Origin: an uncultured Acidobacteriota bacterium
GTDB taxonomy: Bacteria; Actinomycetota; Acidimicrobiia; Spongiisociales; ZC4RG35
NCBI GenBank assembly: GCA_963828465.1
Contig: CAWHEU010000013.1
Location: 52,889-116,888 of the forward strand
DNA length: 64,000 nt
Direction of reading: 5' to 3'
Shown here: positions 2,756-52,145 of the stretch, in pieces
Numbering within the stretch: position 1 is the stretch's first letter
How the letters are laid out: each line of letters opens with the position of its first letter
Position numbers and translations under genes: made by a program
Notes under the pieces: model-generated
Told to the model about the DNA's origin: nothing
Seen by the model: the letters and a program-made list of their open reading frames with translations, nothing else
The model's database searches: none

Positions 2756-2804
2756 ATCTCCCCCTCCGTCGCCTCCGGCGACACCTCCCCCTACGGGGGA
2801 GGAA
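2756..2804 (+). repeat. Double-hairpin REP-like repeat, solo copy (R1)
   Basis: CCCCCTCC-GTCGCC(tcc)GGCGAC-A-CCTCCCCC(tac)GGGGGAGG-AA; identical to 49049-49094 except in the first loop. Confidence 0.9.
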
Positions 2805-2821
2805 CTACCCTGCCGACCCTC

Positions 2822-3121: not shown

Positions 3122-5107
3122 TCAGGGAGTAGTGGGCGGTGTTGTCGCAGGCGGCACCGTGGTCGGCGGGACGGTCGTCGTCGGCGGGACAGTCGTCGGA
3201 GGGGGCACGGTGGTCGGTGGAACCGTCGTCGGGGGGACCGTGGTCGTAGTCGGGCAGGCAGTGGAGGTTCCCGGGACCATGCACGGGTGGACCTCGTAAA
3301 CAGCGAACCTGGGGGCGTAGCGCACCGTCCACTCCTGTTCCGAGACCACTTCGTTCTCGTCGCCGCCGAGCAGGATGCGCCGCGTAACGGTCACGCTCCA
3401 ACCTCCTAGCTCGGTCTGCGTCTGGTCCTCCTCGTTGATGCCCAAATCCGGGTTCGGCTCATACCGGGGCTCTGGCGGATCGGTCTCAGCGAAGCGATCG
3501 GAGACCGATCCTTTGACGTGGAGGGCGTTTGGCCCGCCTTCGGTGTCCACCCAGGCCCGGCTCTCGCCATCCGATTGCTCGCCCTTCAGAGTTCTGCCGT
3601 CGTTCTCCCCGAATATCCGCACGGTGATCGAGGTGTCGGAGTAGGTGGTGTCGATGAGGATGCCGTTGTCGGTGTTGTTGCGGAACTTGAGGTCGGGGGT
3701 TCGCCAGTTGAGGGTGGCCTCGACGCCTTCGGGATACCTGGAGAAGTAGTAGGAGTGGGGCTTGTGCTCGACGTCCTCGTAGCCACCCCAGAACACAGCG
3801 TTGTACATCGTCGTCGTGAACTGGCTGACCCCGCCGCCGACGGTGTCCTCGACCTCACCGGCGATGATGGTGCCGGCAGGGAGGTAGCCGTCCTCCAGAG
3901 TCCTCTGGCCGACATGGTCGTTGAGGCTGAATGTCTGTCCGGAGCCCACGATGGCCCCGTCGACCTCGTCGGCGATCGTGTGAATGTTCACAACACGGTC
4001 CTGACAGCAGTCGTAGTAGGTGGTGAATTGCGCCACGAGGTGGTTGATGTTGAGGCTCTCCAGATCGTCGGTCGTGACATCGGGCTCCGCGGCCTCGACC
4101 AGCGGCAGCTCCCCGATGCGCTCCGCGGTCATCGCCGCATCCGCCAGCCTCACGGCGGTCTCCTCGGCATCGATCTGGGTGCCGCTGGCGCCTGGGACAA
4201 TCGAGATGCTGTCACCAGAGATCTCGAACGTCGCGTCCACCGGCTCCGCCTCGACCTGGTCTCGTATCGAGTCCAGGTAACTGTCGATCAGCTCAGGGTC
4301 GAAGGAGTTGACGATGCGCGGCTCACTCTCGGTGACCGTCTCGGATCGGAAGGACTCGGTCAACTGGTCGACGGTGAAGACCACATCGACGTCTTCATGG
4401 TCGAGCTGGATCGGCTCGACGAGCATTGCTTGAGCCTGATCGACGGCACGGTCTACGTCTTCATCAGTGAGCACCGGCACGACGGTCGTTGTCGGGATCG
4501 AAGTGTGCTCCGGCTCGAGAGCGAGAAGGCTTGTCTCGACGATGGCCCGGGCCGCCGGTCGGTCGACGCCGGTGCCGACCTCGGGGTAGACAGCAGTCGG
4601 GCGGCCATCGGTGAGAATCACTCCACCCGGTGACGGGGGAAGGGCAATCACCTCGGCGTCCCAGGTGTCGAACACCTCCCCGATAGCCACGTCGTCTATC
4701 GAACCTCTGACGGGCACGTGCACCGTGTCGAATATGTGGCTGATCCACCAGGCGAACTCGGAGATCACGTTGCCGTTGCGCCCCACCAGCAGCGCCTCAT
4801 CGGCGATCGCCTGCTCGTTGATGTCGAGCCCGGCCTCAGGGGGCTGCATGCTGACGAACTTGCCCTCGATGTTGAAGACGGCCGGCCGGCCCAGGTATTC
4901 CTCCTCCACCGCCACCAACGCGCTCAGGGCTTGCTCCTCGTCGAGACCGCCGATCTGGGTGTCGGAGACCTCCACACGGCCCATCACCTCACCTCGGGAA
5001 GCCAGGCGGGTCAGGCCGTAGGCGGTGAGCAAGAGCAGCACGAGACCGGCCACACCCACGATGAGCGCGCCAAGCGGAGTCCTGACTGCGGAGAGATGCT
5101 TTTTCAT
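3122..5107 (-). CDS. VanW-family exported protein with peptidoglycan-binding region and Pro/Thr-rich tail
   Basis: N-terminal TM; RVVNI, FSLNDHVGQRT, GGGVSQFTTTMYNA, HKPHSYYFSRYPEGVEAT, DLKFRN. Confidence 0.88.
   Translation of the reverse strand: MKKHLSAVRTPLGALIVGVAGLVLLLLTAYGLTRLASRGEVMGRVEVSDTQIGGLDEEQALSALVAVEEEYLGRPAVFNIEGKFVSMQPPEAGLDINEQAIADEALLVGRNGNVISEFAWWISHIFDTVHVPVRGSIDDVAIGEVFDTWDAEVIALPPSPGGVILTDGRPTAVYPEVGTGVDRPAARAIVETSLLALEPEHTSIPTTTVVPVLTDEDVDRAVDQAQAMLVEPIQLDHEDVDVVFTVDQLTESFRSETVTESEPRIVNSFDPELIDSYLDSIRDQVEAEPVDATFEISGDSISIVPGASGTQIDAEETAVRLADAAMTAERIGELPLVEAAEPDVTTDDLESLNINHLVAQFTTYYDCCQDRVVNIHTIADEVDGAIVGSGQTFSLNDHVGQRTLEDGYLPAGTIIAGEVEDTVGGGVSQFTTTMYNAVFWGGYEDVEHKPHSYYFSRYPEGVEATLNWRTPDLKFRNNTDNGILIDTTYSDTSITVRIFGENDGRTLKGEQSDGESRAWVDTEGGPNALHVKGSVSDRFAETDPPEPRYEPNPDLGINEEDQTQTELGGWSVTVTRRILLGGDENEVVSEQEWTVRYAPRFAVYEVHPCMVPGTSTACPTTTTVPPTTVPPTTVPPPTTVPPTTTVPPTTVPPATTPPTTP
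3125..3255 (-). repeat. Coding low-complexity repeat (PTTVP)n at the VanW C-terminus
   Basis: PTTTTVPPTTVPPTTVPPPTTVPPTTTVPPTTVPPATTPPTTP. Confidence 0.85.
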
Positions 5108-5211
5108 GGAAGGCCGCCCCAAAACGACCTTTTGCCCGGGGCCAGCGATGGTAATGAGCAGTCCGCCGTTATCCGAAAATGTGACAGGACCGCTCTGTAC
5201 TCTCGATTCGA

Positions 5212-5988
5212 GTGACGATCCGATTCCCGGAAATGGTTCATGGGGAAGCCCTCAAGGTCTCGGCGTCGACCTACGTCACCTTCAAGAAATGCCCTGCCCA
5301 GGCCGGGGCGAGGCTGCAGGGAATCTATGGCCCGGAGAGCCGTCAGTCCTTCCTCGGCATCCTTGCCCATCGGATCTTCAGCCGGCATCTGACCTCGGGC
5401 TCGATCCCGTCCGATGATTTTGTGCAGGCATGTCGTGAGGAGATCGGCGGCTCGAGCCTGAACCACAAGATGGCGGACCTCGAAATGCGTCCGTCCGCCC
5501 TGGCTGCCGTCATCGAGGAGGTCCGTGGCCTCTACGAGCGTTTCACACGGCTGCCCTCCGAAGGGTTCGAAGGCTCCGAGCACAACCTCGAGGCGAACGT
5601 GGCCGAAGGTGTGGATTTGATGGGCACAGTCGATGCGGTTTACCGCGAGGATCTCGGTGGGTTCCGCCTTGTGGACTGGAAGACAGGCGAGCTCACCGAT
5701 CCCGAGGATCAGCTTCTGTTCTATGCGCTCTTGTGGCTGCTCGACAGTGGGGAGTTGCCGGCCTACGTAGAAGCGGTATCGGTTAGGACAGGGGAGCGGT
5801 ATCGAACTGTGCCCTCATCAGCAGACGCGGGGAGGGTGGCCGCCGAGATCGCTGAGCTGGTCGATCTCCTTCGCAACGCCTGGGCGACCGGCGCCGATCT
5901 TCCCCGGACCGGTGGTCCCTGGTGCCGGTATTGCCCGCTTCTCGAGGACTGTGAGGAGGGGAAATCGGTCGGGGCGCTGCTCGATTAA
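5212..5988 (+). CDS. PD-(D/E)XK nuclease, RecB/AddB/Cas4-like, probable 4Fe-4S
   Basis: SAS..FKKCP, G..AH, GTVDAV, LVDWKTG, QLLFYAL, CRYCP...C. Confidence 0.85.
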   Translation: MTIRFPEMVHGEALKVSASTYVTFKKCPAQAGARLQGIYGPESRQSFLGILAHRIFSRHLTSGSIPSDDFVQACREEIGGSSLNHKMADLEMRPSALAAVIEEVRGLYERFTRLPSEGFEGSEHNLEANVAEGVDLMGTVDAVYREDLGGFRLVDWKTGELTDPEDQLLFYALLWLLDSGELPAYVEAVSVRTGERYRTVPSSADAGRVAAEIAELVDLLRNAWATGADLPRTGGPWCRYCPLLEDCEEGKSVGALLD

Positions 5989-21746: not shown

Positions 21747-21751
21747 ACCTT

Positions 21752-21798
21752 CCCCCTCCCCGCCTACCGGCGGTACTCCCCCCTTCAGGGGGAGAAAT
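21752..21798 (+). repeat. Double-hairpin REP-like repeat, solo copy (R2) between convergent genes
   Basis: CCCCCTCC-CCGCC(tacc)GGCGG-TACTCCCCCC(ttca)GGGGGAG-AAAT; matches the reverse complement of 48524-48570. Confidence 0.88.
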
Positions 21799-21799
21799 T

Positions 21800-47437: not shown

Positions 47438-48520
47438 GTGGCGCTCTCCATTGGCATCGTCGGTCTCCCCAACGTCGGCAAGTCGACTCTCTTCAACGCG
47501 CTCACAAATGCCGGCGTTCTCGCCGCCAACTATCCCTTCGCCACGATCGAGCCCAACACGGGGGTCGTTCCGATACCCGACCCGCGGCTCGAGGTCCTGG
47601 CCGGCATGTTCGACTCGGAGAAGGTCATCCCGGCCACGGTCACGTTCGTGGACATCGCCGGGCTGGTGAAGGGCGCCAGCGAAGGGGAAGGCCTCGGCAA
47701 CCAGTTCCTCGCCAACATCCGCGATGCGAACGCGATTTGCCATGTGGTCCGGGGCTTCAGCTCGCAGAGCGTTGCCCACGTCGACAACGAGCTCGACCCG
47801 AAGAGGGACATCGAGACGATCGAGACCGAGCTCGCGATCGCCGACCTCCAGACGATCGACAAGCGGCTGCCCCGCCTCGAGAAGGAATCGACCATCGATC
47901 GGACGCTCGTGCCGCGGGTCGAGCTGCTGAGAGACCTGCGGGCGGTGGTGGCGTCGGGGCGTGTCGTGAGCAGCGTCCCGTCGATGATGGCCCGGAGCCG
48001 TGAGTTCGCCGATCTTCATCTGCTGACGGCAAAGCCGGTGATCTATTTGTTCAATGTGGACGAGGCCGGTCTGCGCGACGCTGATCTCCGCAGCCGTTTG
48101 TCCGATCTGGTGGCCCCATCTGAGTCGCTGTTCGTCGATGCCCAGATCGAGGCCGAGATGGGCGAGCTCGACGAGGGAGATCGACGGGAGCTCCTCGTCT
48201 CGGTGGGACAGGACGAGCCCGGCCTCAATGCCGTGATCCGGGCCGCCTATCGCACCCTGGGCTTGCAGAGCTTTCTCACCGCCGGCGAGAAGGAAGCCCG
48301 TGCCTGGACGATCCGGTCCGGGGCGACCGCCCCTGAGGCAGCCGGCGCCATCCACACCGACTTCCAGCGGGGGTTCATCGCCGCCGAGGTCGTGGCTTAC
48401 CAGCCTCTGCTCGAGGCGGGTTCATGGGTGGCGGCCAAGGCCAAGGGTCTGGTCAGGACCGAGGGCAAGTCCTACGTGATGCGACCCGACGACGTGGTGG
48501 AGTTCCGCTTCAACGTGTGA
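47438..48520 (+). CDS. ychF: Redox-regulated ATPase YchF
   Basis: GIVGLPNVGKSTLFNALT, ANYPFATIEPN, DIAGLVKGASEGEGLGNQFL, IHTDFQRGFI, FRFNV. Confidence 0.97.
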   Translation: MALSIGIVGLPNVGKSTLFNALTNAGVLAANYPFATIEPNTGVVPIPDPRLEVLAGMFDSEKVIPATVTFVDIAGLVKGASEGEGLGNQFLANIRDANAICHVVRGFSSQSVAHVDNELDPKRDIETIETELAIADLQTIDKRLPRLEKESTIDRTLVPRVELLRDLRAVVASGRVVSSVPSMMARSREFADLHLLTAKPVIYLFNVDEAGLRDADLRSRLSDLVAPSESLFVDAQIEAEMGELDEGDRRELLVSVGQDEPGLNAVIRAAYRTLGLQSFLTAGEKEARAWTIRSGATAPEAAGAIHTDFQRGFIAAEVVAYQPLLEAGSWVAAKAKGLVRTEGKSYVMRPDDVVEFRFNV

Positions 48521-48523
48521 CTC

Positions 48524-48570
48524 ATTTCTCCCCCCGAAGGGGGGAGTACCGGCGTAGCCGGGGAGGGGGG
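48524..48570 (-). repeat. Double-hairpin REP-like repeat (R3), left of DUF559 gene
   Basis: Reverse complement CCCCCCTCC-CCGGC(tac)GCCGG-TACTCCCCCC(ttc)GGGGGGAG-AAAT. Confidence 0.88.
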
Positions 48571-48603
48571 ATTCCGTCCCAACTGGTTGTCATGATCTCT
48601 CGG

Positions 48604-49311
48604 ATGGCTCGACCCCTCCATACGCCAATAGCGGGTACTCGCGCCAAGACACTGCGCCGAAACCTGACCGTGTCTGAGGCGAGGGTCTGGAGCGGCTTGA
48701 AGAACAAGGCAGCCGGTGCCCGGTTCCGCCGTCAGGTCCCGTGTGGATATTGGATTGCCGACTCCTGTTCCTTCCACCCGAAGTTGGTCGTCGAGATCGA
48801 CGACACGTCACATGAGTTTCGAGATGAAAGTGTGAGAACCGACTACTTCGAGTCACTCGGATTCCCGGTGCTCCGCTTCACCAACAGACAGGTCGCTCAG
48901 GAGTACCCCGAGGTGATGGGCACCATTTCAGCATGGGTCGCGCATCTCAAGTCCACAGGCAAACCACCTGAGTCACCCTCCGGCCCTGTTTCTCCCCTCG
49001 TAGGGGGAGTACGGGGAGGGGGGAACCTCTTTGCTGCCTCACCCAAATCCCCCTCCGTCGCCCATGGGCGACACCTCCCCCTACGGGGGAGGAAATGTCG
49101 GTTCGCTCCTGGGGGAGGAAACGTCGCCGGCCAATTAGACTGGCGTGGCCATCGACACCGAATGGGAGAGCCCCTGGTTGGCAGGGGCGCCGAAGGGGCA
49201 ATTCCTCCCCAGAATCTCTCAGGCAATGTGGACCATTCGGCCGAGGCAACGCTGGAGTCGTCTGGAAACTGTCTGGAAATGACGACAGCGGGGGAGGGCA
49301 TTGCACCCTGA
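48604..49311 (+). CDS. DUF559/Vsr-like endonuclease; domain ends near 48972 but the frame stays open to 49311 (possible lost stop or pseudogene)
   Basis: [34 protein letters not shown]...H, RT.YFESLGF.VLRFTN. Confidence 0.8.
48989..49023 (-). repeat. REP-like repeat (R4) lacking the first hairpin
   Basis: Reverse complement CCCCCCTCCCC-GTACTCCCCC(tac)GAGGGGAG-AAA. Confidence 0.8.
49046..49095 (+). repeat. Double-hairpin REP-like repeat (R5), inverted relative to R4
   Basis: AAT-CCCCCTCC-GTCGCC(catg)GGCGAC-A-CCTCCCCC(tac)GGGGGAGG-AAA. Confidence 0.9.
49158..49240 (+). ncRNA. Glycine riboswitch (single aptamer)
   Basis: P1 CCGAATGG/CCATTCGG; GGAGAG...CGCCGAAGGGGCA...AATCTCTCAGGCAA...GGAC; directly upstream of gcvP. 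Confidence 0.9.
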
Positions 49312-49319
49312 GGAGAGAG

Positions 49320-52145
49320 ATGCCCAACCCCAACGAGCGGTTCGCCGACAGGCACATCGGTCCCCGGCCAGACGACATGGACAAGATGCTGGCGACGATC
49401 GGCGCGGCCAGTCTCGACGACCTCGTGGCCGAGACAATCCCTGCCTCGATACTCGATACAGACCTCGACCTGCCGCCGGCCCTGTCCGAGGGGCAGACGA
49501 TCGAGAGGTTGTCGGAGCTCGCATCCAAGAACGTGGTCATGACCTCGTTGATCGGCTTGGGCTATCACGACACCATCACCCCACCGGTGATCCAACGAAA
49601 CGTGTTGGAGAGCCCGGCGTGGTACACGGCATACACCCCGTATCAACCCGAGATCTCCCAGGGTCGGCTCGAGGCCCTCCTCAATTTTCAAACGATGGTC
49701 TCCGATCTCACCGGTCTGGACGTGGCCAACGCTTCGCTGCTCGACGAAGCGACTGCCGCTGCCGAGGCCATGGCCATGTGCCGCCGTCTCGCCAAGAGCG
49801 ATCGGTCGGTGTTCTACGTCGATGACGATTGCCATCTCCCGACAATCGAGGTGGTGAAGACCAGGGCAGCGGCGGCCGGGATCGAGATCCGGATGCTCTC
49901 CGAGGGCTTCGAGGCCGATTCGGCGTTTGGCCTCCTACTTCAGTATCCGGGATCATCGGGTGACATCAGGGACCACCGCGCCCTGGTCGACGAAGCCCGC
50001 GGTGCCGGAGCGCTGGTGGCCGTGGCCGCAGATCTGCTCGCCCTCACATTGATCACTCCACCGGGGGAGTGGGGTGCTGACATCGCGGTGGGCTCGGCTC
50101 AGCGATTCGGGGTGCCCTTGGGATACGGCGGGCCCCATCCCGGGTTCATCGCTACCAAAGACGAGCACGTCCGGGGCCTCCCGGGCCGCCTCGTCGGCGT
50201 GTCCCATGACACGTCGGGTCGGGTCGCCTATCGGCTTGCCCTCCAGACACGGGAGCAGCACATACGGCGGGAGAAGGCCACCTCCAATGTGTGCACCGCG
50301 CAGGTCCTCCTCGCGGTGATAGCCGGCTTCTACGGCTGCTGGCACGGGCCGCTCGGTCTGAAGGAGATCGCAAAGGAGGTGCACCGGCTGACCTCATTGA
50401 CTGCCGCATCTCTTCGATCCGCTGGATATGAGGTGGTCAATGGGTCGTGGTTCGACACCATCACCGTCGCCACTCCGGGTAGAGCCGAGGAGTTGATAGA
50501 CGAGTCCCTGAAGGGCGGGATCAATCTCGGGCACGTGGACGAGGACCACGTGCGGATCGCCTTCGACGAGACGACGACCGAACAGATCGTCGAGCGGCTA
50601 CTCGACGCTTTTGGCGCGAGTGGGGCCGGCGTCACCGACGACGACTCGATTCCGGTCGATCTGGTCAGGCAATCGGAGTTCATGACCCACCCCGTGTTCA
50701 GCCTTCACCGGTCGGAGCACTCGATGCTCCGCTACTTGCGACGCCTCGCCGACCGCGATCTCGCCCTCGACCGAAGCATGATCCCGCTGGGTTCATGCAC
50801 CATGAAGCTCAACGCAACGACGGAGATGATCCCGATCACCTGGCCAGAGTTCTCGGCGATCCACCCCTATGCGCCGGAGGAGCAGGTGGCGGGATATCTG
50901 GAGTTGATCGATGACCTCGCCGGCTACCTCTGTCGGATCACCGGCTACGACGCCGTGTCGCTGCAGCCCAACGCCGGCTCGCAGGGCGAGCTCGCCGGCC
51001 TGCTCGCCATCAGGGCCTATCAGGGCTCGATTGGCGAAGGGCATCGGGATATCTGTCTGATCCCGTCGTCGGCGCACGGAACCAACGCCGCCTCGGCGGT
51101 GATGGCGGGCATGAAGGTCGTGGTGGTCGCCACCGATGGTTCGGGGAACGTCGACCTGGCCGACCTGGAAGCCAAGGCGTCGGAGCATTCGGAGCGTCTG
51201 GCGGCGGCGATGATCACCTATCCCTCGACCCATGGTGTGTTCGAGGAAGGGGTGCGGCGGCTGATCGAGATCGTGCACCAACACGGTGGCCAGGTCTATG
51301 TCGATGGGGCGAATCTGAATGCGATGGTGGGATTGTCCAAGCCGGCCGGCTTCGGGGCCGACGTCGGACATCTGAATCTCCACAAGACCTTCACCATCCC
51401 TCATGGGGGTGGTGGGCCGGGTGTTGGCCCGGTCGGAGTGAAGGCACATCTTGCCCCGTTCCTACCCAACCACCCGATGAGCCGGCGGGCAGGCCCGTCG
51501 ACCGGAGTGGGGCCGATCTCGGGAGCGCCCTTCGGGTCGGCCGGGATCCTCCCCATCCCGTATGCCTATGTCCGCCTGATGGGGGCGGACGGTCTGCGGG
51601 CGGCGAGCAAGGTGGCGATCCTCTCGGCCAATTACCTGGCTCGACGCCTCGATCCCTATTTCCCGGTGCTGTACACCGGGACGAGCGGTCGAGTTGCTCA
51701 TGAGTGCATCGTCGATGTGAGACCCATGACGCGGGCTGCAGGGGTGACGGCGGAGGACATCGCCAAGCGTCTCGCCGACTACGGGTTTCATGCGCCCACG
51801 CTTTCTTTCCCGGTGCCCGGCACATTGATGATCGAGCCCACCGAGTCCGAGAGCCTCGAGGAGCTGGATCGATTCGTGGAGGCCATGATCGCCATTCACG
51901 GCGAAATCGGGCGTGTCGAGTCCGGGGAGTGGAGCCGAGGGGACAACCCTCTCCACAACGCCCCTCACTCCGCTGAGCAGGTGGCATCGGACGAATGGGA
52001 CCACGTTTACTCGAGGGAGACCGCGGCCTTCCCCGTGGCATCGCTCCGGGTCGACAAATACTGGCCACCCGTCGGCCGTGTCGATGGTCCCGGTGGCGAC
52101 CGCAATCTCGTCTGCGCATGCCCACCGCTCGACGCCTACGCTTGA
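49320..52145 (+). CDS. gcvP: Glycine dehydrogenase (decarboxylating), P protein
   Basis: [63 protein letters not shown]; SD GAGGAG. Confidence 0.97.

Follow-up and report, generated by a model that had tools for sequence, protein, structure and literature searches.

In the present work, we describe a small genetic element within a 64,000-nucleotide (nt) stretch of bacterial DNA, referred to here as the window, from genome G000 (3,069,762 bp in 29 contigs, 92.29% complete, 64% GC). At positions 48524–49127, between the core genes ychF and gcvP, the window holds a short-form DUF559 (Vsr-like) nuclease gene bracketed by repeats of the BoxC/triplex-motif type, and we favor, with modest confidence, the reading that the two together form a small selfish cassette propagated through a homing-like cycle, in which the action of the nuclease on the repeats is something we infer. 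Gene and repeats enter and leave the ychF–gcvP site as one unit, as is evident from an alignment of empty and occupied alleles, and the same association recurs at unrelated loci in many phyla.

The first-pass annotation of this DNA had described three members of one repeat family around a single small nuclease gene between ychF and gcvP, with one copy (R3) on the left, an inverted R4/R5 doublet on the right, a remnant near 49111 and two solo copies elsewhere, and had treated gene and repeats as one unit. All of these elements are present and could be assigned coordinates, and the joint gain and loss of gene and repeats at the site bears out the unit. The extent originally given (48524–49095) is too short at the right edge, as the inserted segment reaches approximately 49127. 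The features are as follows.

47438–48520, plus strand: ychF, the left core gene, an open reading frame (ORF) with a TGA stop at 48518–48520; 79–100% identical across 30 genus loci.
48524–49127, plus strand: the entire inserted cassette (repeats and DUF559 gene), 604 bp, delimited by alignment with empty sites and by a contig from run X3.
48525–48570, minus strand: repeat R3, type A, full copy; the best-scoring copy in the genome (54.6 bits).
48604–48975, plus strand: short-form DUF559 (Vsr-like) nuclease gene (Pfam E 1.2e-22; homologue alignment; match to PDB entry 3hrl).
48976–48988, plus strand: truncated type-B repeat, 5' half (block 1 and left arm of hairpin 2), from orthologue alignment.
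48989–49023, minus strand: repeat R4, type A, hairpin 2 deleted (profile E 0.13).
49049–49096, plus strand: repeat R5, type B, full copy (profile E 4e-7).
49097–49127, plus strand: cassette tail, in which the right arm is partly repeated in tandem (TGTCGGTTCGCTCC, followed by TGGGGGAGGAAA), with the right junction; from repeat search and alignment.
49111–49121: GGGGGAGGAAA remnant within the cassette tail.
49153–49245, plus strand: glycine riboswitch upstream of gcvP (ATG at 49320); Rfam RF00504, 65.3 bits against a gathering score of 32; outside the cassette.
2759–2806, plus strand: solo type-B copy, a clean insertion/deletion relative to G021 and G041.
21751–21799, plus strand: solo type-A copy flanked by a convergent gene pair; likewise a clean insertion/deletion relative to G021 and G041, also missing from G044, and decayed in G012 and G017.

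R3 consists, in order, of TTTC, hairpin 1 (CTCCCCCC/GGGGGGAG), TA, hairpin 2 (CCGGC/GCCGG) and GGAGGGGGG, and R5 of CCCCCTCC, hairpin 2 (GTCGCC/GGCGAC), AC, hairpin 1 (CTCCCCC/GGGGGAG) and GAAA. The type-B 5' half directly adjoins the nuclease stop codon in orthologues.

The ychF loci of 30 genomes of the genus were compared, following the original suggestion that relatives be examined for empty sites. Five sites are occupied (G000, G044, G017, G023 and G019) and 14 are cleanly empty, with ychF followed by the riboswitch and gcvP and with neither a DUF559 nor a repeat match, while 11 loci of other synteny have no gcvP within the locus. Alignment with the empty sites places the insert between GTGTGACTC and CCGGCCAATTAG, the junctions falling at the outer ends of the repeats. 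Since the empty alleles hold no repeat whatever, gene and repeats arrived together. Sequencing runs compared with the window contain both alleles: a contig from a soil metagenome (X3) joins 48523 to 49128 with CGGT between, skipping 604 nt and thus representing the empty allele, and contigs from two environmental runs (X1 and X2) cover the cassette. An RNA run (X15) yielded no contig over 48571–49119 and is uninformative as to expression.

The frequency of these exchanges was estimated from a tree of the flanks (ychF and the start of gcvP) of 18 genomes, from which G013 was excluded because its ychF is cut by a contig end. In this tree, where stars mark 12 of the 15 inner branches, each occupied genome is paired with an empty sister, and at least five changes of state are needed. 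In G017, a 16-nt duplication of the ychF end lies on both sides of the insert; it is missing from the other four occupied genomes, indicating at least two separate insertion events at the site. Synonymous divergence (dS) of the DUF559 gene is 0.33–0.54 in all six pairs, compared to 0.23–1.14 for ychF/gcvP. Relative to the host split, the cassette is older in the pair G000/G044 and younger in the pair G000/G019, and its history is uncoupled from that of its flanks. The sister lineage G021/G041 has neither the cassette nor the two solo copies of the window, with no strict copies in G021 and two to three BLAST matches in G041, a scarcity which suggests either that the copies were purged or that invasion of this lineage never took place. 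The ychF gene of G012 (L017 2289–2291) aligns in two pieces with a frame shift, reflecting either a frameshift or an assembly error.

This pattern bears on whether the DUF559 gene could be a domesticated partner of the repeats, kept by the host, inherited vertically as a single copy and spreading the repeats in trans while itself immobile, as in RAYT systems. Such a role would agree with the cognate repeats that flank the gene, with gene-less A(-)B(+) doublets that resemble REPINs, and with the ratio of nonsynonymous to synonymous divergence (dN/dS), which at 0.10–0.15 in six pairs places the nuclease under purifying selection. Repeat numbers also track gene presence in the genus: among the 25 genomes having both kinds of count, all seven with a short-form gene have at least seven strict repeats, and 13 of the 18 without it have three or fewer (Fisher p 0.0016, kinship ignored). 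The gene is nevertheless a presence/absence polymorphism with at least five changes on 18 genomes, it occurs in two short-form copies in G019 and three in G009, three of nine close genus copies are damaged, and the enzyme is not of the Y1/HUH type and cannot rejoin strands, so that we regard a domesticated partner of this kind as quite improbable. The RAYT-analogous system proposed in the first-pass annotation therefore stands as regards the unit, its recurrence across loci and phyla, the co-variation of gene and repeat and the failure to find a RAYT, and falls as regards RAYT-like behavior.

Other mobilizers were sought as well. The Y1 transposase family (PF01797) had no matches in G000, at its 92.29% completeness, or in the repeat-rich relatives G022, G034, G023, G018 and G012, and no small GIY-YIG gene was found in G000, where GIY-YIG matches occur only in frames of 549 and 610 amino acids (aa); a RAYT (G000 and the five relatives) or a small GIY-YIG gene (G000) as the true partner was rejected accordingly. 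Repeat copies bracket trpD-trpC-trpF (G000 C2:15979–18501) and an amidohydrolase and nitrilase pair (G000 C4:49926–52360), in both cases at operon borders. These two repeat pairs, 2.3–2.4 kb apart, were checked as possible ends of an insertion sequence (IS) and rejected, as their interiors consist of the genes just named with no transposase. Thus, the alternative raised at the outset, that a RAYT or IS elsewhere in the genome carries these ends, found no RAYT and no IS within either checked pair.

The association between short-form DUF559 genes and repeats extends well beyond the ychF–gcvP site. Homologues at a second locus shared by G022 and G009, and in G040, G034 and G028, lie away from ychF and gcvP and are flanked within approximately 100 nt by the same or a diverged repeat. 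At other loci, homologues with 42–90% identity have flanks composed of the same repeat or a co-varying one, and those with 35–37% identity (G029, G036 and G011) are flanked by other C-tract/G-tract hairpins; across these sequences, the repeat co-varies with nuclease divergence over the range of 35–90% identity. Within the genus, all nine close short-form loci carry the repeat, compared to none of nine long-form DUF559 loci. G000 itself has two long-form loci (C24:47733-47924 and C25:190670-190858), one with an open frame of approximately 300 aa and the other a pseudogene with several in-frame stops, and neither has an adjacent repeat. A second short-form gene in G019 (G019:C2:236858-237205), 56% identical to the window protein, has A(-) and B(+) ends on its two sides that are the same as those of the copy beside ychF. 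Movement of the gene with its repeats between unrelated loci is suggested by these sequence comparisons.

The association was also surveyed across many phyla using the best 80 homologous loci, four of which were dropped for short flanks or runs of N, with a flank match defined as a flank-to-flank score of at least 32 bits and 212 ORFs from the same loci serving as controls. Matching flanks were found for 54 of 76 homologues and for 5 of 212 control ORFs (Fisher p 1.6e-34), which gives the enrichment of repeats beside DUF559 genes across taxa that the first-pass annotation had proposed to look for. A rerun with slightly different coordinates gave 55 of 76 matching, with 38 pairs inverted and 17 direct, and C4/G4 hairpins were present on both sides of 19 of 78 loci, compared to none of 275 displaced windows.

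These results also allow a passive co-location of gene and repeats to be weighed, in which the repeats would spread through their own DNA structure or another factor, and DUF559 cassettes would hitchhike while the nuclease acts elsewhere, for example on mismatches or foreign DNA. BoxC/triplex-motif repeats are tied to local instability with no mobility gene nearby, according to an earlier study (Holder et al., 2015; PMC4666352), the orientation of the flanks is variable, and repeats persist in five genomes in which no short-form gene was found. Mere hitchhiking does not account for the co-variation of repeat sequence with nuclease divergence, for the complete absence of repeats beside the long-form DUF559 genes of the same genomes (0/9), or for the joint arrival recorded by repeat-free empty alleles, and it seems to us distinctly improbable.

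The repeats form a dispersed family in G000. A pattern for hairpin 1 matches five times in the window against a shuffle mean of 0.87, with none of 100 shuffles reaching five, and the full-length strict pattern matches 25 times genome-wide, compared to once when read backwards. An nhmmer profile search returned 46 rows, 39 of them at E <0.5 and covering at least 25 model positions; the genome-wide count called for at the outset is thus 25 strict copies and approximately 40 sites in 3.07 Mb. The family comprises two subtypes, A and B, together with a long-loop variant. In each of the 22 copies caught by a stricter pattern, hairpin 2 pairs perfectly, although its stems vary (CCGCC, CCGGC and its length variants, GTCGCC, GGCCC and CTGCC), indicating that structure is kept while sequence changes. 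Block 1 (CCCCCCTCC) is the mirror of block 2; in 23 of 27 copies, a stretch of 7 nt or more in it equals the parallel pyrimidine third-strand code of block 3, and the run lengths of the three blocks co-vary (5,5,5 in four copies and 6,6,6 in nine).

Gene-less, end-to-end A(-)B(+) doublets, which are both cassette ends minus the gene, occur in G000 at C2:76685-76778 and C24:6728-6832, and the solo repeats and gene-less doublets are themselves insertion/deletion polymorphisms. Crude ORF calling placed 18 of 39 copies inside ORFs and 21 between genes; the ORF-internal placement is not trusted, because frames in a 64% GC genome read on through repeats. In seven long-loop variants (G000 C2:195243, C4:49926, C4:52299, C6:10219, C16:12585, C18:352710 and C26:63188), hairpin 1 encloses the string AACG(T/C)..CGCT..GCTCC, which recurs as a partial tandem repeat past the right end of the cassette (window 49097–49121), and a 12-nt deletion at the cassette end would yield the long-loop form. 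A type-B 5' half ending in the hairpin-2 loop (CCCCTCCGGCCCTG) is joined to the outer end of an inverted copy (TTTCTCCCC...) at four sites in three genomes (window 48976–49000, G017:C22:13974-14031, G011:C7:8128-8185 and G017:C82:4478-4533). Either insertions nested at a favored position of the hairpin-2 loop or the spread of a ready-made composite unit would account for this junction.

Hairpins of this kind could in principle act at the RNA level, as transcript terminators, stabilizers or processing sites, with the DUF559 protein as their ribonuclease. The placement of 14 of the 21 copies called between genes within 8 nt of a stop codon (again by the crude ORF caller) would fit, and Vsr-like FASTK proteins reportedly process mitochondrial RNA. 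The orientation of the copies with respect to the upstream gene can be either one, the repeats score under the gathering threshold of every Rfam family, and a role in RNA leaves the gain and loss of whole cassettes unexplained; we consider it highly improbable. In the Rfam search of 48300–49500, the glycine riboswitch alone passed, and whalefall-1, CRISPR-DR58, scr5239 and sot2652, which matched the repeats weakly, were rejected as far under their gathering scores.

The nuclease frame matches Pfam PF04480 with 80.3 bits (cut-off 20.6) over aa 16–114 of the translation from 48592, and homologues align from the ATG at 48604. In an alignment of 12 sequences, D53, E64, D66 and H70 are invariant, and a catalytic role for these four residues is predicted from the family. 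A search of the PDB with the family profile matched 3hrl, an entry annotated as endonuclease-like, at E 2.3e-30. It also matched 3r3p, which is the homing endonuclease I-Bth0305I, at E 0.0029 (20.6 bits, profile positions 50–116), suggesting a kinship that is weak. The NCBIfam model NF007294 (YcjD equivalog) scored 50.9 bits, under its curated cut-off of 218, and assignment to the YcjD equivalog was rejected.

The G000 copy of the gene looks damaged. Four orthologues read GAC TGA directly before the type-B repeat, and G000 reads GAG TCA, the stop position (48973–48975) being TCA; in the contigs from X1 and X2, position 48974 is G, so that the codon is again TGA. With its stop gone, the frame 48424–49311 is open through R4, R5 and the glycine riboswitch, and since it crosses the riboswitch, its tail is not coding. 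Thus, the annotated 295-aa frame is an artefact of the lost stop, and the real gene comprises approximately 123 codons. A second change, F54S, is private to G000, the position being F in the 11 other aligned sequences, and on the strength of the lost stop and F54S this copy is probably on the decay branch of the cycle. Damage also affects G017 (a 2-nt frameshift) and G042 (a split gene), amounting with G000 to three of the nine close genus short-form copies.

In the selfish-cassette reading, the nuclease would recognize the folded repeat (a hairpin or an intrastrand triplex, in single-stranded or extruded DNA) and nick or cut beside it, and host repair or recombination would then copy, or precisely remove, the repeats and the cassette. 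A homing-like cycle of invasion, decay, loss and re-invasion could result, in which the damaged copies, that of G000 included, would represent the decay phase.

Several observations weigh against this reading. A hydrolytic nuclease alone cannot rejoin (ligate) DNA, and homing by homologous repair does not explain the clean entry of solo repeats or of the cassette into repeat-free sites. The orientation of the flanking copies varies (38 inverted and 17 direct among 55 homologues), which shows that the repeats do not serve as fixed ends of a transposon; moreover, just one of five occupied sites displays a duplication of the target. Five genomes, all 88–98% complete, carry 10 (G003), 17 (G012), 5 (G015), 22 (G018) and 8 (G024) repeats with no short-form gene found, so that either the repeats can be maintained where no nuclease is resident or the gene is missing from the assemblies. 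The G018 counts, the split copy of G042 and the pattern hits in G027 and G038 rest on genomes flagged as unpublished. The flank tree represents one locus in a window along which relationships change, and the dS estimates are based on just 120 codons.

A further possibility is a host function of the kind proposed for SsnA, that is, a repeat-specific and perhaps single-strand-specific endonuclease that modulates the uptake or recombination of repeat-bearing DNA, the present layout then being left over from an ancestor that was mobile. NTS-ssnA-NTS has the same architecture, and the SsnA study reports repeats on both sides for 42% of homologues, as well as cleavage by the enzyme of single-stranded DNA close to its repeat (Chenal et al., 2025; PMC11893778). 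Purifying selection on the nuclease and the bracketing of operons such as trpDCF would also fit. The fold differs (DUF559 as opposed to GIY-YIG), and a gene that is decayed or absent in most close relatives is a poor fit to a useful host function, which leads us to view this alternative as unlikely.

A similar-looking arrangement is found in Escherichia coli K-12 (NC_000913), in which ycjD, itself a DUF559 gene (locus 5040–5830; record 1351217–1351239), ends in a C/G-tract hairpin; after it come a 39-nt duplicate of its own 3' end, with 90% identity, and then a BoxC-type hairpin. Across the K-12 chromosome, 26 sites match the pattern CCCTCNCCC-N2-14-GGGNGAGGG, compared to none for the control.

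More broadly, short-form DUF559 nucleases may be the missing partner enzymes of BoxC/PIT/triplex-motif repeats in many phyla, E. coli ycjD included, with structure-specific cutting driving repeat spread, precise loss and instability; we advance this generalization tentatively, as a proposition for which the balance falls slightly short of even. If true, it would represent a third class of nuclease–repeat partnership, REP-RAYT and NTS-Ssn being the other two. The very common DUF559 domain has not been assigned a function, and to our knowledge no cause has been identified for the spread of BoxC/triplex-motif repeats since the 1990s; a tested link between the two would explain both. It would also add a third nuclease fold to the systems in which an enzyme is partnered with a repeat and could yield sequence- or structure-specific nuclease tools, as with Ssn. 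The look-alike in E. coli K-12, where ycjD is accompanied by BoxC-type hairpins, makes the DUF559–repeat idea directly testable.

No description of a DUF559–repeat partnership was found in the literature searched on DUF559, ycjD, Vsr-like, BoxC-type and REP repeats (supplements excluded). Predicted programmed inversions are reportedly enriched in several protein families, including DUF559 (PMC9881135), and in Legionella a transposase/DUF559 segment is reported to be a recombination hotspot (PMC12308824).

With regard to the repeats, the double-hairpin, REP-like layout recognized in the first-pass annotation was confirmed, and what it missed was a known class. BoxC, PIT and TMECO repeats are likewise built of a C-block and a G-block separated by a loop, followed after a spacer by a mirror G-block, three blocks that could fold as an intrastrand triplex, and are likewise extragenic, dispersed and variable between close strains. 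Linkage of BoxC/triplex-motif repeats to local genomic instability has been described, with mobility genes never found nearby, and in the text of that study the words “nuclease” and “ycjD” do not occur (Holder et al., 2015; PMC4666352). The TMECO pattern is given there as CCCTCNCCC-N3-6-GGGNGAGGG-N3-GGGNGAGGG, with ITxF loops of 1–6 nt (Holder et al., 2015; PMC4666352). The present repeats fit neither: their blocks are CTCCCCCC/GGGGGGAG rather than CCCTCNCCC/GGGNGAGGG, and the second loop (N3 in TMECO) is replaced by a hairpin of 13–16 nt plus 2 nt (15–18 nt), so that the published pattern would miss the present copies. By their sequence organization, they appear to be a variant of the BoxC/triplex-motif class.

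REP and REPIN repeats are reportedly partnered with RAYT (TnpA-REP), a Y1 HUH transposase, and RAYT genes are single-copy and vertically inherited. The shared features are an enzyme gene bracketed by cognate extragenic palindromes, and solo copies and inverted doublets dispersed beside the ends of genes. In contrast, the enzyme described here is a DUF559 protein, hydrolytic and with no covalent intermediate, no Y1 transposase was found, and the gene is neither single-copy nor vertically stable. Compared to an insertion sequence or miniature inverted-repeat transposable element, the cassette has no transposase, its ends have an inverted orientation at this site and a direct one in 17 of 55 homologues with flanks, and a 16-nt duplication accompanies one of five sites (G017).

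A precedent for a Vsr-like nuclease driving the spread of its own gene is provided by I-Bth0305I, described as an EDxHD homing endonuclease (PDB 3r3p; Taylor et al., 2011; PMC3239194). The two belong to one nuclease clade, as Vsr, DUF559 and DUF2726 are grouped in a single PD-(D/E)XK clade that includes 3hrl and 3r3p (Steczkiewicz, 2012; PMC3424549). The present gene differs in being free-standing and intergenic (ychF/gcvP), outside any intron or intein, with multi-copy repeats as its flanks and no unique host gene.

The closest published system is NTS/SRM-SsnA. There, the nuclease is a GIY-YIG protein (cd10448) with demonstrated cleavage, whereas the cassette described here encodes a putatively repeat-cutting Vsr-like PD-(D/E)XK (DUF559) protein, its repeat is a three-block C/G-tract motif with two hairpins, and the unit is a frequent presence/absence polymorphism in the present genus. 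In both systems, the gene for a small, single-domain nuclease lies between hairpin repeats that are also dispersed through the genome, the repeat variant is particular to each homologue, and the layout resembles that of an insertion sequence without a transposase.

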